64,000 bases of DNA from assembly GCA_963665845.2 (NCBI GenBank), contig OY762492.1, forward strand, positions 2,336,001-2,400,000. Direction: 5' to 3'. The notes beneath the pieces are model-generated. The model saw nothing but the letters and a program-made list of their open reading frames with translations, did no database searches and was not told where the DNA came from. Both the position numbers and the translations under genes were made by a program. Shown in pieces: positions 11,722 through 59,465 of the stretch. The stretch comes from Candidatus Poribacteria bacterium. Lineage in GTDB: Bacteria > Poribacteria > WGA-4E > GCA-2687025. The number at the start of each line of letters is the position of its first letter. The stretch's first letter is position 1.

Positions 11722-11964
11722 GACAGCGCCTAAAGACGATGGCATTCATTTTTGCGCGACAGCCCGCCGATCCATGTCGTCATTCCCGCGTAAGCGGGAA
11801 TCTTAGGCGCCGCTGAACGAACAAAGCCTTTATTCATGGGAAAAAGCGTCGTCAACCAGACCGTCATTCCCGCCCTTGCGGTAAAACGTGCGGGAATCCA
11901 GAGGCGCCGTAGAAGCCGCCCGCGTTCGCCCGCCGGCATGTCCCAACTAAAGACGTAAGGTCAG
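11722..11964 (+). mobile_element. Chimeric MITE-G/MITE-C element with two REP palindromes
   Basis: Degenerate MITE-G end at 11722, palindromes at 11782-11801 and 11866-11897, MITE-C end ...AAGGTCAG at 11964. Confidence 0.85.
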
Positions 11965-11974
11965 TATACGCTGC

Positions 11975-12003
11975 TTGAGTTCCGGTTGTTCTGACGTTAA
12001 ACT
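11975..12003 (+). promoter_or_regulatory. Sigma70-type promoter of the TPR-antitoxin/toxin operon
   Basis: TTGAGT-17bp-TAAACT. Confidence 0.65.
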
Positions 12004-12006
12004 AGT

Positions 12007-12909
12007 ATGGCAATGTTGATGGAGCGGACGATGCAGCTTTCCATGAGTTCAGCGACCAGACCGCTGACCGCATCTCTTTTAAATCTAGATGCGCAGGGCG
12101 CGCATAACTTTCATGGGTTTTTTACCGATCAACCGATGAGTATTCTGCCGACCATCGAGATAACGGCGGTTGAGGATACGGCGAATGTTATTGTCGGGAA
12201 TATCGAAGGCGGATCGTTCCATTTCAGCCGCGCGACTGCGCATCTGGAAACGAAAAATATCGAGGGTTTTAAGTCAGAACTTTTGAGCGCCATTCGATGT
12301 TTTGACGAAGCGATTCGGCTTCTCAAAAATGAAACGGATGTTCCGGATGATGCGGCGATGGGGCATCTCTATTTTGCCCGCGGCGGCGCGGCATTTTCAT
12401 TGGAGATCGGATTGAGATTGGTTTCGCCGCAGGCGTCGCCGTATCTAAAGAAGGCGATCGCCGACTTGGCGGAATCAAAAAAGCGCTTTGTCAAATCAAC
12501 GCATCTCAATCGCGCCCGAACGGTTCTTTTCCTCTTGGGAAGCGCCTACATGTGCGCAAAGCAGTGGTCGAAAGCGATCGCATGCTTCAAAGACATCATC
12601 CGGCAGGACATGTACTGCGCCCCCGCCTTCATATGCCGCGGACTTGCTTATCGAGAGCTTGGCGAAATAGACGAATACGAGGAGGATTTCCGAATCGCCG
12701 TTTCGCTGCAGCCCGATCTGGTGAACGACGAAACATACGGCGCCGAATTTAGCCGCATCAAAAAAAGAAGCGAAAAAGAAAAAGAAAAATGGGAAGCGGC
12801 ATTCGCGCTGCCGGAGTCCAAGATATTCCTGGAGCAGACGGCTAAAGAGGTCCTTGAAGAGCATCGCCGAGGTGAAACCACACCGCTCAATATCGAAGAT
12901 TTGAAATGA
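12007..12909 (+). CDS. TPR-repeat protein with C-terminal type II antitoxin-like tail
   Basis: TPR-like helices (AIRCFDEAIRL, YFARG, AFICRGLAY); tail KWEAAF...FLEQTAKEVLEEHRRGETTPL. True start may be 12031 (GGAG RBS). Confidence 0.75.
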   Translation: MAMLMERTMQLSMSSATRPLTASLLNLDAQGAHNFHGFFTDQPMSILPTIEITAVEDTANVIVGNIEGGSFHFSRATAHLETKNIEGFKSELLSAIRCFDEAIRLLKNETDVPDDAAMGHLYFARGGAAFSLEIGLRLVSPQASPYLKKAIADLAESKKRFVKSTHLNRARTVLFLLGSAYMCAKQWSKAIACFKDIIRQDMYCAPAFICRGLAYRELGEIDEYEEDFRIAVSLQPDLVNDETYGAEFSRIKKRSEKEKEKWEAAFALPESKIFLEQTAKEVLEEHRRGETTPLNIEDLK

Positions 12910-12910
12910 A

Positions 12911-13252
12911 ATGCGCTCATTTACATGCCGACGCTTCTGGGATGCGTTTAAAAAACGCCCTAAGAAGATTCGAGACCGAACGCGTGAAGCCTACGAGTTC
13001 TTCTCCAAATACCCAAATTACCCTAGCCTAGATTTTAACAAATTAAAAGGATTTCCGACGCTGTATTCCGCAGAAATAACCGAAAACTACCGAACGCTGG
13101 GCGTAGTAGAAAAGAACGACGTTATGTGGTTTTGGATCGGCCCGCACGACGACTACATGAACAAACTTAAAAACCCAAGCATCCAAAAATCTATCCGTAT
13201 GGCTCACGAAAACCTAAAAAAACGGCAAGCAAAACACGGTCGACAAAACTAA
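12911..13252 (+). CDS. RelE/ParE-superfamily toxin-like protein
   Basis: RRFWDAF...AYEFF..YP.YPSL.F..L...YS..I..NYR.LG...WFWIGPHDDY pattern; starts 1 bp after the upstream stop. Confidence 0.85.
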   Translation: MRSFTCRRFWDAFKKRPKKIRDRTREAYEFFSKYPNYPSLDFNKLKGFPTLYSAEITENYRTLGVVEKNDVMWFWIGPHDDYMNKLKNPSIQKSIRMAHENLKKRQAKHGRQN

Positions 13253-57118: not shown

Positions 57119-57122
57119 CGCT

Positions 57123-59189
57123 CTATTCCTCGTCGTCGGCTGTCGCTTGCGCGATCACCTTTTCCTGCTCATTCGCGGGCGCCTGCTCGTAATGGTCAAG
57201 CTCCATTGTGTAGGTTCCGCGCGCGCTCGTCATCGACTTCAGGTCGGTCTGGTAGCGCATCATTTCAGACAGCGGCACGGTCGCCTTGATCAGCTGCCGC
57301 TTGGCGACCTGCTCCATGCCCATGACGCGCCCGCGCCGTCCGTTCAGGTCGCCGATGATGTCGCCCATCAGCTCGTCGGGGACGAAGATATTGACCGCCA
57401 TGATCGGCTCAAGGATGACAGGGTTCGCCTGCTCCATCGCCGCTTGGAAGGCTCCGCGCCCCGCGATTTGAAACGCGATGTCCTTTGAATCGACAGGATG
57501 CGTCTTGCCGTCCATGAGCCGCACCTTCAGGTCGACCACCGGGTAGCCCGCCAGCGGTCCCGATTCCATCGCCTGCCGCACGCCCTTGTCGACGCTTGGG
57601 CGGAACTGCTGGTCGATGGAGCCGCCGAAGATTTCGTCCACAAACTCGTATCCGCCGTCCCGCTCCATCGGTTCCACGGCGAGGATGACGCGCCCGTATT
57701 GACCCGCGCCGCCGGATTGCTTTTTGTGGGTGTATTCGACGGACGGCACGGCGCGCGTGATCGTTTCGCGGTAGGCCACTTTCGGAATTTCCAGCCGCGC
57801 GCCCGCCTTGAACTTCTGCTTTGCGCGAATCAACGCGAGCGACAGATGCTGATCGCCGTAGCCTTCCAGCAGCGTCTGGTTCGTCTCTCGGTCGCGGCGG
57901 ACGCGAAGCGTCGGGTCTTCTTCAGTGAGACGCGCTAGCGCGGCGCTGAGGCGGTCGTCGTCCCCCTCTTTTTCTGGAAACACGGCGCGCGAATAGGTCG
58001 GGTTCAGAAACTCAATCGGCGGAAGCGCATAACGTTTGTCGGAACGGGCTAAGGCGTCGCCCGTCGCCGACTCGTTCAGCTTCGCCACCGCGCCGAGGTC
58101 TCCAGCCGAGACGGCGTCCGTTTCGATGTCGTTTTTGCCGCTGCGGTAGACCACCTTTCCGAACCGCTCCGCGCTGTTTTTGGAAACATTGTAAATCGCT
58201 TCGGCGCCGACGGAGCCGGAATACACCTTAAAGAGCGAGAGGCGTCCGGCATACGGGTCGAAGATCGTTTTGTAGATGCGGGCGGCGAGCGCGCCGTCGG
58301 CGTCTGCCGGCAGCTCCAGTTCCTCGCCGTCCAGCTCAACGGCGGCAGGTTTGTCGGCGGGGGAGGGGAACACATCGACGATGAAGTCCAGTATCGACTG
58401 GATGCCGACCGCTTTTTCAGCCGACACCGCAAAGGCGGGCGCGACGCTGCCATCGGCAAAGCCCGCTTTGAGACCCGCCCAGATGTCGTCCGCGGTCAGA
58501 TCGTCCTCTTCAAAGTATTTTTCAAGCAGCTCCTCGTCCGATTCGGCGGCAGATTCGACGAGCGCGGCGCGCATCTCCTCGGCGAGACCTGTCAGATCGT
58601 CCGGTATGTCGGCGGCGTCGGCGTCGGCTCCGTCGTAGAGAAACGCCTGCCCGCGCGGTATGTCGACGACGCCGTTGAACGCCTGCCCCGTTCCGATGGG
58701 CAGGTTGACGGCGGCGGGAGCCGCGTCCAGCATGTCGACCGTCGTTCCGAGCGCTTTTTGGAAGTCCGCCTGCTCCGCGTCGAGTCGGTTGACGACAATG
58801 GCGCGCGGCATTTTGTGCCTGTTTAACATTTCCCACAGCTTTTCGGTACCGCTTTCGACGCCGCTTTCGCCGTCGATGAGCAGGATGACGGCTTCGGCGG
58901 CGCTGAGCGCGCATTCGACATCGCCGTACAGGTCTTCGGCGCCGGGCGTATCGATCCAGTTGATCTTGCAGTCTTTCCATTCGAGAATGCAGGGGGTCAG
59001 GCTAAGGCTGGAGCCGCGTTCGATTTCAAGCGGGTCGTAGTCGGAAGCGGTCGATCCGTTCGAGACGGAGCCCATTTTGGAGACGGCGCGGGCGTGGAAC
59101 AGCGCCGCTTCTAAGAGCGTCGTTTTTCCGACGCCTGCATGGGAAACGACAGCGATGTTGCGAATCGACGCGGGCGAGTACTGTTTCAT
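57123..59189 (-). CDS. fusA: Elongation factor G paralog (EF-G2-like)
   Basis: IRNIAVVSHAGVGKTT, DTPG, EEDPT, HKKQSGGAGQYG, HPVDS, ILEPIM, GDLNGRRG; not in an rpsL-rpsG operon. Confidence 0.92.
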   Translation of the reverse strand: MKQYSPASIRNIAVVSHAGVGKTTLLEAALFHARAVSKMGSVSNGSTASDYDPLEIERGSSLSLTPCILEWKDCKINWIDTPGAEDLYGDVECALSAAEAVILLIDGESGVESGTEKLWEMLNRHKMPRAIVVNRLDAEQADFQKALGTTVDMLDAAPAAVNLPIGTGQAFNGVVDIPRGQAFLYDGADADAADIPDDLTGLAEEMRAALVESAAESDEELLEKYFEEDDLTADDIWAGLKAGFADGSVAPAFAVSAEKAVGIQSILDFIVDVFPSPADKPAAVELDGEELELPADADGALAARIYKTIFDPYAGRLSLFKVYSGSVGAEAIYNVSKNSAERFGKVVYRSGKNDIETDAVSAGDLGAVAKLNESATGDALARSDKRYALPPIEFLNPTYSRAVFPEKEGDDDRLSAALARLTEEDPTLRVRRDRETNQTLLEGYGDQHLSLALIRAKQKFKAGARLEIPKVAYRETITRAVPSVEYTHKKQSGGAGQYGRVILAVEPMERDGGYEFVDEIFGGSIDQQFRPSVDKGVRQAMESGPLAGYPVVDLKVRLMDGKTHPVDSKDIAFQIAGRGAFQAAMEQANPVILEPIMAVNIFVPDELMGDIIGDLNGRRGRVMGMEQVAKRQLIKATVPLSEMMRYQTDLKSMTSARGTYTMELDHYEQAPANEQEKVIAQATADDEE

Positions 59190-59259
59190 GCGGGAGGACC
59201 TTTTTTCGGTGAATGAATCCTGTAAATGCGTTTTTTATGGGCAGTATGCCGTTGGACAC

Positions 59260-59288
59260 ATGATAATGGCTATGGGCGGCGGTGTCAA
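59260..59288 (-). promoter_or_regulatory. Sigma70-type promoter of the fusA2-panC operon
   Basis: TTGACA-17bp-TATCAT on the minus strand. Confidence 0.8.
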
Positions 59289-59297
59289 TGGGCGGCG

Positions 59298-59465
59298 CTG
59301 ACCTCATGTCTTTAGTGGGGACATGTCGGCATGGAAACGCGGACGGTTTCGGGGTGGACTCTGGATTCCCGCTTACGCGGGAATGACGACCTGGTTGATG
59401 ACGCTTTTTTCCCATGAATAGAGTGGTCATTCGTTCAAATGTCCCAACTTTCGGCGTGAGGTCGG
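59298..59465 (-). mobile_element. 168-bp complete MITE-C with central REP palindrome
   Basis: CTGACCTCATG...CGTGAGGTCGG ends; palindrome at 59366-59385; flanking (GG)GCGGCG duplication. Confidence 0.87.

Follow-up and report, generated by a model that had tools for sequence, protein, structure and literature searches.

The 64,000-nucleotide stretch of DNA analysed here (contig OY762492.1, positions 2,336,001 to 2,400,000, from a Candidatus Poribacteria bacterium; hereafter the window) holds five copies of a miniature inverted-repeat transposable element (MITE). This MITE has the ends of an IS4-family insertion sequence (IS) and sits with the edge of its target duplication 3 bp upstream of sigma70-type -35 boxes, where the promoter-bound RNA polymerase holoenzyme probably positions the transposase; we put the probability of this reading at about 0.68. 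Promoter-targeted insertion itself, which an earlier note on this DNA had proposed, is in our view close to certain. It is supported by genome-wide phasing of the element ends, by phasing to a single base relative to the edge of the target duplication, by empty alleles in a congener and by autonomous relatives in several phyla that follow the same rule.

The MITE family and its phasing to promoters

We refer to the genome of the window as G000 (3.98 Mb, 90% complete, contigs C1 and C2), to a congener of which a sample of 798 kb was examined as G001, and to a near-complete genome with autonomous copies of the targeting IS as G031. The A end is the right inverted repeat (IRR, the right end of the parent IS) and the B end the left one (IRL). 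Position weight matrix (PWM) and profile scans of G000 returned 464 ends (277 A ends, 187 B ends), whereas a shuffled chromosome gave none. These pair into 125 complete elements of 127-227 bp, with size modes at 168 and 190 bp. A perfect target duplication of 5-9 bp flanks 50 of the 125 complete copies, where 0.75 are expected from shuffled pairs, and measures 6-7 bp in 41 of these 50. The family thus combines inverted repeats shared with an IS, duplications together with empty alleles, and short multi-copy units without a transposase, all of which are features of a MITE. A hairpin similar to repetitive extragenic palindromes (REP-like) lies inside 120 of the 125 complete MITEs, and the chromosome contains about 880 copies of its short form and 216 of its long form; no match to a REP-associated tyrosine transposase (RAYT) gene (Y1_Tnp, PF01797) for this hairpin was found in G000, which is 90% complete. 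By eye, an IS110-like transposase gene and a truncated copy of it lie inside MITE copies (G000:C1:3073389-3075095 and 469845-470456), apparently targeting the internal hairpin.

A promoter motif was scored genome-wide as TTG-N3-N16..18-TAnnnT starting 8-13 bp outside an element end, with 16 shifted windows as control. Such a motif faces 115 of the 464 ends compared with 0-6 in the shifted windows (109 compared with 1-6 under a stricter motif call), which is far more than chance would give. Outward from both end types TTG peaks at 9-12 bp and TAnnnT at 32-35 bp, and 99/114 promoter-facing ends point to an open reading frame (ORF) on the same strand compared with 197/348 other ends. Moreover, 33 of the 170 non-coding TTGACN-17-TAnnnT motifs of the G000 chromosome, as counted with a crude coding mask, adjoin an element end.

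The 50 duplicated copies, one of which lies on contig C2 and repeats a C1 site, were aligned on the outer edge of their duplication, from which offsets are counted. TTG begins at +3 on 37 sides (36 elements), whilst any other offset is found on 0-3 sides, and TAnnnT begins at +26 (3+6+17) on 21 sides. The distance from end to box minus the length of the duplication equals 3 in 29/33 calls (Spearman 0.86). The fixed quantity is the 3-bp gap between the duplication edge and the -35 box, rather than the end-to-box distance. The spacing of 9-10 bp in the earlier note holds for the window, where it results from a duplication of 6-7 bp plus 3, and is not the true constant. The same note had the same end of the element facing the promoter at four loci. 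Among the duplicated copies TTG stands at +3 on the A side only in 21, on the B side only in 14, on both in one and on neither in 14 (21 vs 14, p=0.31; over all ends, p=0.08); either end can face the promoter and therefore that rule fails.

Empty alleles and recombination between copies

The G001 sample contains a flank of 39 complete copies. In 8 of these both flanks are collinear, and the 8 comprise five clean empty alleles, one shared insertion, one site with another repeat and one unclear case. Each of the five empty alleles holds one copy of the 6-8 bp site, showing that the promoter motif predates the insertion. Lastly, in the G001 sample itself the motif is present at 18/51 ends and TTG at +3 in 4/7 duplicated copies.

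The flanks of five duplication-less copies are found at different G001 loci, and promoters on both sides (strict call) were seen in 7/56 duplication-less copies compared with 0/50 duplicated ones. Age was considered as a cause of missing duplications and rejected, given equal divergence from the consensus (median 22 vs 20, p=0.69). Duplication-less copies fit recombination between MITE copies, because their flanks are split in G001, because promoters occur on both sides and because they are no older than the others. A search for reciprocal recombinants among duplication-less ends lends this no support, with 28 matches at 6 bp, 5 at 7 bp and 4 at 8 bp, all inside the ranges of the shifted controls (7-35, 2-11 and 0-5).

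These data also bear on whether loose intergenic insertion was followed by selection for promoter-adjacent copies, or whether an end was co-opted as an upstream regulatory site, the latter having been the earlier note's second suggestion. The IRR end would replace the DNA from about -45 outward, which is the UP-element region, orphan A ends outnumber orphan B ends (152 vs 62), and one insertion is common to G000 and G001, all of which would suit such a history. However, selection on the position of the end would fix the end-to-box distance; this distance varies with the length of the duplication whilst the edge of the duplication keeps to a single base position, which speaks against it. Moreover, the seven recent copies of G031, identical at their left ends, already obey the +3 rule (5 of the 6 with duplications, one not), and both orientations occur. 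Nine MITE pairs stand back to back, eight of them with 6-8 bp spacers, and show repeated insertion at the same spot. Selection or co-option would thus be a most improbable explanation, and the edge-fixed geometry and the empty alleles make a co-opted regulatory site unlikely.

The parent insertion sequence and its transposase

An autonomous element of the kind envisaged in the earlier note is present as a 1267-bp parent IS with matching ends and a transposase predicted to have the Tn5 fold, albeit in G000 as a decayed copy. Its 27-bp IRL is identical to that of the MITE consensus and its IRR differs at few positions, whilst the MITE interior is unrelated to it past the terminal 27-35 bp. The transposase gene is the sole tblastn hit in G000 and is interrupted twice, by a frameshift within an A run at about codon 320 and by a stop in the tail. 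The sequence is borne out by independent contigs, and related contigs (run X4) differ at both breaks. The parent IS has no target duplication, and both of its flanks carry the motif, at 11 bp and 9 bp from the ends. Other long end pairs in G000 were rejected as parents as they hold passengers or unrelated genes (by eye, IS110-like, IS1595-like and extracytoplasmic function (ECF)-sigma-like ORFs).

The transposase matches PF01609, and its best NCBIfam model is NF033591 at 77.7 bits; scores across the family (77.7, 84 and 70 bits) are all under the cut-off of 152. D84, D166, Y258, R261 and K272 are invariant in the family, E265 is present in at least 90% of 110 sequences, and the Y(2)R(3)E(6)K motif of the IS4 family is recognisable. 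With E265 or E268 the catalytic spacers are 81 and 98-101 residues, in keeping with the IS4 rule D(60-110)D(100-150)E, the second at its lower limit. An AlphaFold model of the full-length member P0015 (predicted local distance difference test, pLDDT, 89.7) matched Tn5 transposase with E 4.5e-12 (Z 20.4, root-mean-square deviation 4.7, 324 residues aligned); the next best structure had Z 13.0 and the Mutator-like ISCth4 Z 7.1. A sequence search of solved structures gave weak Tn5 matches only (E 0.23-0.45). By sequence and predicted structure, the parent transposase is a Tn5-fold, IS10-related DDE enzyme of the IS4 family and not Mutator-like.

A search of a representative protein library returned 253 proteins at E 1e-30 or better. 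The family forms a separate, well-supported clade relative to the IS10 subgroup; a search of a plasmid collection gave 3 weak matches, none of which gives the family an ISfinder name. The family shares with the IS10 subgroup its 5'-CT ends and length of 1200-1350 bp (CTGA ends; 1267 bp in the parent, mostly 1160-1325 bp in relatives), and departs from it in lacking a 9-bp duplication and in scoring under the NF033591 cut-off. In the broad sense it is a member of IS4. Homologues that stop after a Lys-Lys run raised the idea of a programmed frameshift that adds the C-terminal tail, which we rejected. In 94/99 relatives with a recognisable tail it is in frame, the other 5 break at the A/G run, breaks go both ways and the X4 contigs differ at both G000 breaks; a homopolymer hotspot is therefore the simpler explanation. 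The family thus agrees with IS4 elements in having one ORF with no frameshift.

The rule in relatives and controls

In GTDB genomes 68 loci were examined, mostly from Chloroflexota, of which 47 have paired ends and 21 a perfect duplication. TTG stands at +3 in 20/21 of these, on the right in 12 and on the left in 8, and the 21st has TCGACG-17-TACAAT there; the duplication is 6-7 bp long in 18/21. These 21 are partly non-independent, with three in one genome and two at one site, and three G031 copies overlap this set. The GTDB counts leave out 21/68 unpaired loci (including L055, L057, L060-62 and L068) and 26/47 duplication-less pairs. In metagenomes (80 loci) 6 copies have duplications and 6/6 obey the rule, whilst 44/123 distinct ends carry the motif at 8-11 bp; here 49/55 pairs are duplication-less and left out. 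Many of the pairs left out of either set are probably assembly chimeras. Copies of the Babeliales type, at 33% identity, fit the rule by eye. The +3 rule holds in Chloroflexota, Rubrobacter, Nitrospirota, a Babeliales genome and the host of the window. Among the relatives, L011 and L037 are tandem pile-ups in which a second left end starts a few bases past the right end, and in G031 an autonomous copy (L155 / L147, G031:C1 ~3.974-3.976 Mb) lies just upstream of the gene for the host primary sigma factor (rpoD-like).

Among distant elements of the IS10 subgroup, three that exceed the NF033591 cut-off carry TTGACA/G-17-TAnnnT at 12 bp from the end (with imperfect duplications), and L077 fits the rule with a 12-bp duplication plus 3. 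L077 also lies between divergent promoter motifs, a parallel to the 18-bp case in the window. L078 and L079 of the same subgroup do not fit, and neither do five further single IS10-subgroup loci in Chloroflexota, in some of which the ends are uncertain. IS10 itself served as a control (59 prophage loci), with a duplication of 9 bp in 19/19, TTG at +3 in 2/19 and the motif at 8-13 bp in 0/79 ends. A second IS10-subgroup element of G031 gave +3 in 0/8. The rule is thus not shared by IS4 elements at large, and it does not simply follow from the base composition of intergenic DNA.

Recruitment of the transposase might instead depend on some host factor outside the core of the sigma70 holoenzyme, for example a general activator or a nucleoid protein that binds immediately upstream of the -35 box. 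Recruitment of Ty3 by transcription factors is a eukaryotic precedent (cited in PMC3942029), and class II activators occupy an overlapping position (PMC8561392). However, the +3 rule is common to several phyla and many unrelated promoters, which favours a universal component, and we give such a factor very little credence.

Recognition of the promoter

Dependence on the whole promoter can be read from the -10 box. It follows 47-61% of MITE-adjacent TTG, whereas among the remaining intergenic TTG of each class the share is 5-29% (Fisher p 2e-4 to 1e-36), and the spacer is 17 in 26/35 sides with a -10 box. On the far side of the insertion there is no TTG and no constraint, unlike what symmetric readout by a dimer would give. 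A one-sided ruler that spans 30 bp would most simply be the holoenzyme.

A live rival, though in our judgement an unlikely one, is that the transposase reads TTG(ACA) directly and one-sidedly, 4-9 bp past its cut, the -10 enrichment arising from the accessibility or supercoiling of active promoters. Two of the observations that weigh against holoenzyme guidance fit such direct reading of the -35 sequence, namely 14 MITE ends that lie 8-11 bp from the TTGAAA of a hairpin repeat mostly without a -10 box, and two distant IS10-like copies (L133/L136) with TTGA at +3 and no -10 box. That repeat is the third hairpin repeat of G000 and has 533 copies. IS10 flanks show a mild T preference 5-6 bases out, which counts on the same side, as do a C bias just before TTG and the target-arm specificity noted for some IS4 elements in PMC2266710. 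Further points against our interpretation are that TTG at +3 is missing in 14/50 duplicated copies, that 18/53 TTG-bearing sides (MITE and relatives) have no TAnnnT at a spacer of 15-19, and that only 3/5 empty alleles are exact (TTG at +3 in three, at +4 in one, TTC in one). In addition, 74/125 complete copies are without a perfect duplication of at least 5 bp, and the sole G000 copy of the parent is the decayed one, its mobilisation of the MITEs being suggested by the shared ends.

Several results speak against direct readout. In the 14 duplicated copies without TTG, TAnnnT still stands at exactly +26 on 4/28 sides (p=3e-5), as it does at L061 and L064. Weak -35 variants (TTG then C, G or T) carry a -10 box in 61% of targeted cases but in 5% of the intergenic background. 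The unconstrained far side also speaks against it, and 14/533 copies of the hairpin repeat were hit compared with 33/170 full TTGACN-17-TAnnnT motifs. Guidance by the holoenzyme, the best reading of these data, would account for the part of the earlier note's proposal that named RNA polymerase or sigma.

The proposed course of events is as follows. A transposase of the parent type would have moved the MITEs in trans by cut-and-paste, as its predicted fold, motifs and shared ends suggest. The transpososome may dock on the promoter complex by protein contact or on the bend that polymerase induces. Standard DDE chemistry would put the fixed strand-transfer site 3 bp upstream of the -35 hexamer, in the template strand, whilst the second site would float 5-9 bp further up. 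The duplication of 6-7 bp would then be centred near -41.5/-42 (conventional numbering assumed), where class II activators bind, in contact with sigma region 4 and alpha. Tentatively, and with slightly less than even odds, we suggest that a multi-phylum Tn5-type clade docks on the sigma70 polymerase-promoter complex in the manner of a class II activator and transfers a strand at one invariant bond, 3 bp upstream of the -35 box, whilst the partner bond floats. A predicted complex of the G031 transposase with host sigmaA region 4 scored 0.00 (mark 0.32), which we count neither for nor against binding. The outcome would be a safe harbour, in which genes and core promoters stay intact and hits pile up upstream of one promoter, and recombination between copies may reshuffle upstream regions.

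Copies and neighbouring features in the window

The window contains two complete and three partial copies, with five A ends and two B ends (Table 1). The geometries reported in the earlier note were confirmed at all four loci, with motifs exactly as described 10 bp from ends 11964, 20139 and 27508 and 9 bp from end 59298; its exclusion of the diverged copy at 61153 was also correct. The motifs at 11964, 27508 and 59298 point toward genes, encoding two tetratricopeptide repeat (TPR) proteins and an EF-G-like protein.

Table 1. Element copies, promoter motifs and related features, in window coordinates unless a genome or locus is named.
Feature	Position	Strand	Details
MITE copy, IRL end lost	11814..11964	+	IRR (A) end 11964; consensus positions 29-168 at 82%; PWM score 77.8
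Sigma70-type motif TTGAGT-17-TAAACT	11975..12003	+	10 bp from end 11964; upstream of TPR-protein ORF 12007-12909
Complete 190-bp MITE copy	19950..20139	+	IRL 19950, IRR 20139; atypical 18-bp direct repeat 19932-19949 / 20140-20157
Motif TTGAAC-17-TAAGAT	20150..20178	+	10 bp from end 20139; inside second repeat family (20147-20205); faces convergent gene end
Partial MITE copy	27508..27628	-	IRR (A) end 27508; consensus positions 60-168 at 85%
Motif TTGACG-17-TATATT	27469..27497	-	10 bp from end 27508; upstream of TPR-protein ORF 27394-26999
Complete 168-bp MITE	59298..59465	-	27-bp terminal inverted repeats; internal REP-like hairpin; 6-bp duplication GCGGCG (59292-59297 / 59466-59471)
Promoter motif TTGACA-17-TATCAT	59260..59288	-	9 bp from end 59298, 3 bp from duplication edge; upstream of EF-G-like gene 59189-57123
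Diverged half copy (IRR end)	61153..61230	-	no promoter motif at expected place
REP-like hairpin ATTCCCGC..GCGGGAAT	1607-1712, 3775-3847, 7135-7170, 11778-11817, 15112-15136, 21634-21693, 23852-23876		core of the MITE too
Parent IS, 1267 bp	G000:C1:561322-562588		long end pair with DDE transposase
Second G031 IS10-subgroup element, 1195 bp	L272, L277, L279, L281-L285		CTAG ends; 8-bp duplications; AT-rich targets; at least 8 copies

The locus at 20139 is the weakest of the four, because its motif sits in another repeat family, faces a convergent gene end and adjoins an 18-bp duplication, the sole such direct repeat among the 125 complete copies. TTGAAG at 20161 begins exactly 3 bp past the edge of this duplication, and the +3 rule may cover a long duplication too. 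The second repeat family (window 15128-15232, 20147-20267 and 21709-21758), with 61 genome hits of at least 45 bp, carries TTGAAC-17-TAAGAT itself.

The motif of the EF-G-like gene is kept in G001. There, a sequence resembling a degenerate end likewise lies 9 bp from it (L082, compared with window 59283-59300), and synteny breaks at this point. A fused HsdR-N / N6-methyltransferase gene of restriction-modification type (61396-63396) adjoins the diverged half copy. Three tandem WD40-repeat genes (51037-55750) are built of 126-bp units and share an N-terminal motif, which we take to be characteristic of Poribacteria; the third ORF, of 326 aa, is shorter. Together with a sponge-metagenome run label, this motif makes it probable that the host is a Poribacteria-like bacterium associated with sponges. 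An Rfam search of the window matched no family. Three RNA runs contain a small share of the stretch (0.05-0.15), in each case as contigs, which do not reveal transcription starts.

Comparison with known systems

Bacterial MITEs that derive from IS ends are non-coding, carry the inverted repeats of an autonomous IS, are flanked by target duplications and reach hundreds of copies. The present family is built in the same way, unlike them in its interior with a REP-like hairpin and in its promoter-phased placement. Promoter-targeted transposition in a transposase lineage unrelated to the Mutator-like ones is real, general and precise. If our interpretation is true, it represents an independent origin of polymerase-guided transposition that is tractable via Tn5/Tn10 biochemistry, and it provides a natural in vivo promoter-mapping and safe-harbour tool. 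The MITE would then mark about a fifth of the strongest promoter motifs of G000 and act as a rearrangement joint between them, and the data suggest that MITE-mediated recombination swaps upstream regions among promoters. Moreover, insertion sites would annotate promoters at no cost in bacteria that have not been cultured. By what means the transposases of prokaryotes locate promoters is a question standing since TnGBS. With its single-base rule, a compact enzyme of 380 residues that has the predicted fold of Tn5 transposase, the best-studied one in bacteria, recently active G031 copies and non-targeting IS10 relatives as controls, the family makes this question directly testable.

A literature search, mostly of open-access journals, found no paper on promoter targeting of the IS4 type; within its scope, promoter targeting is in print solely for Mutator-like transposons, and contact between polymerase and transposase has been proposed with no demonstration found. 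De Palmenaer et al. 2008 define the IS4 family and its IS10 subgroup (PMC2266710), and the word 'promoter' is absent from the main text of that paper; the portions of PMC9208149 consulted add nothing further on IS4-type promoter targeting. Like IS10/Tn10, ISVsa5 and IS50/Tn5 as described in PMC2266710, the family has 5'-CT ends, a length of 1.2-1.3 kb, a single DDE transposase with YREK, a predicted Tn5 fold and NF033591 as best model. Unlike IS10, whose duplication is 9 bp and whose target is symmetric with no promoter phasing, its duplication has a mode of 6-7 bp (range 5-9). Compared with the norm given there for IS4 as a whole (7-13 bp by subgroup), these lengths overlap those of ISPepr1 (7-8) and are mostly shorter.

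The closest behavioural match lies in ISLre2/TnGBS (p-MULT 3) and the ISKra4 group (p-MULT 4), Mutator-like elements that target promoters at 13-17 bp from the inverted repeat with a peak at 16 (PMC3942029). Guerillot et al. 2014 regard such targeting as atypical among prokaryotic elements, and contact with the RNA polymerase initiation complex was proposed there for ISLre2/TnGBS (PMC3942029). Class II activators, at about -41.5 to -42, contact sigma70 and alpha (PMC8561392). Like ISLre2/TnGBS and ISKra4, the MITE family inserts upstream of housekeeping-sigma promoters with a fixed spacing to the -35 box, and as in the ISKra4 group it uses both orientations, which there occurs when the two inverted repeats are near-perfect (PMC3942029). 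Unlike these Mutator-like elements, which form circular intermediates and are mostly oriented, it has an end-to-box distance of 8-12 bp and an invariant 3-bp gap next to a variable duplication of 5-9 bp. Its transposase, unlike those of p-MULT, matches PF01609 with YREK and a modelled Tn5 fold (Z 20.4 compared with 7.1 for ISCth4). The earlier note had considered a spacing variant of ISLre2/TnGBS targeting; because the enzyme appears IS4/Tn5-like, what we describe is a parallel and not a variant of the Mutator-like family. The MITE family works like ISLre2 but is no member of it.

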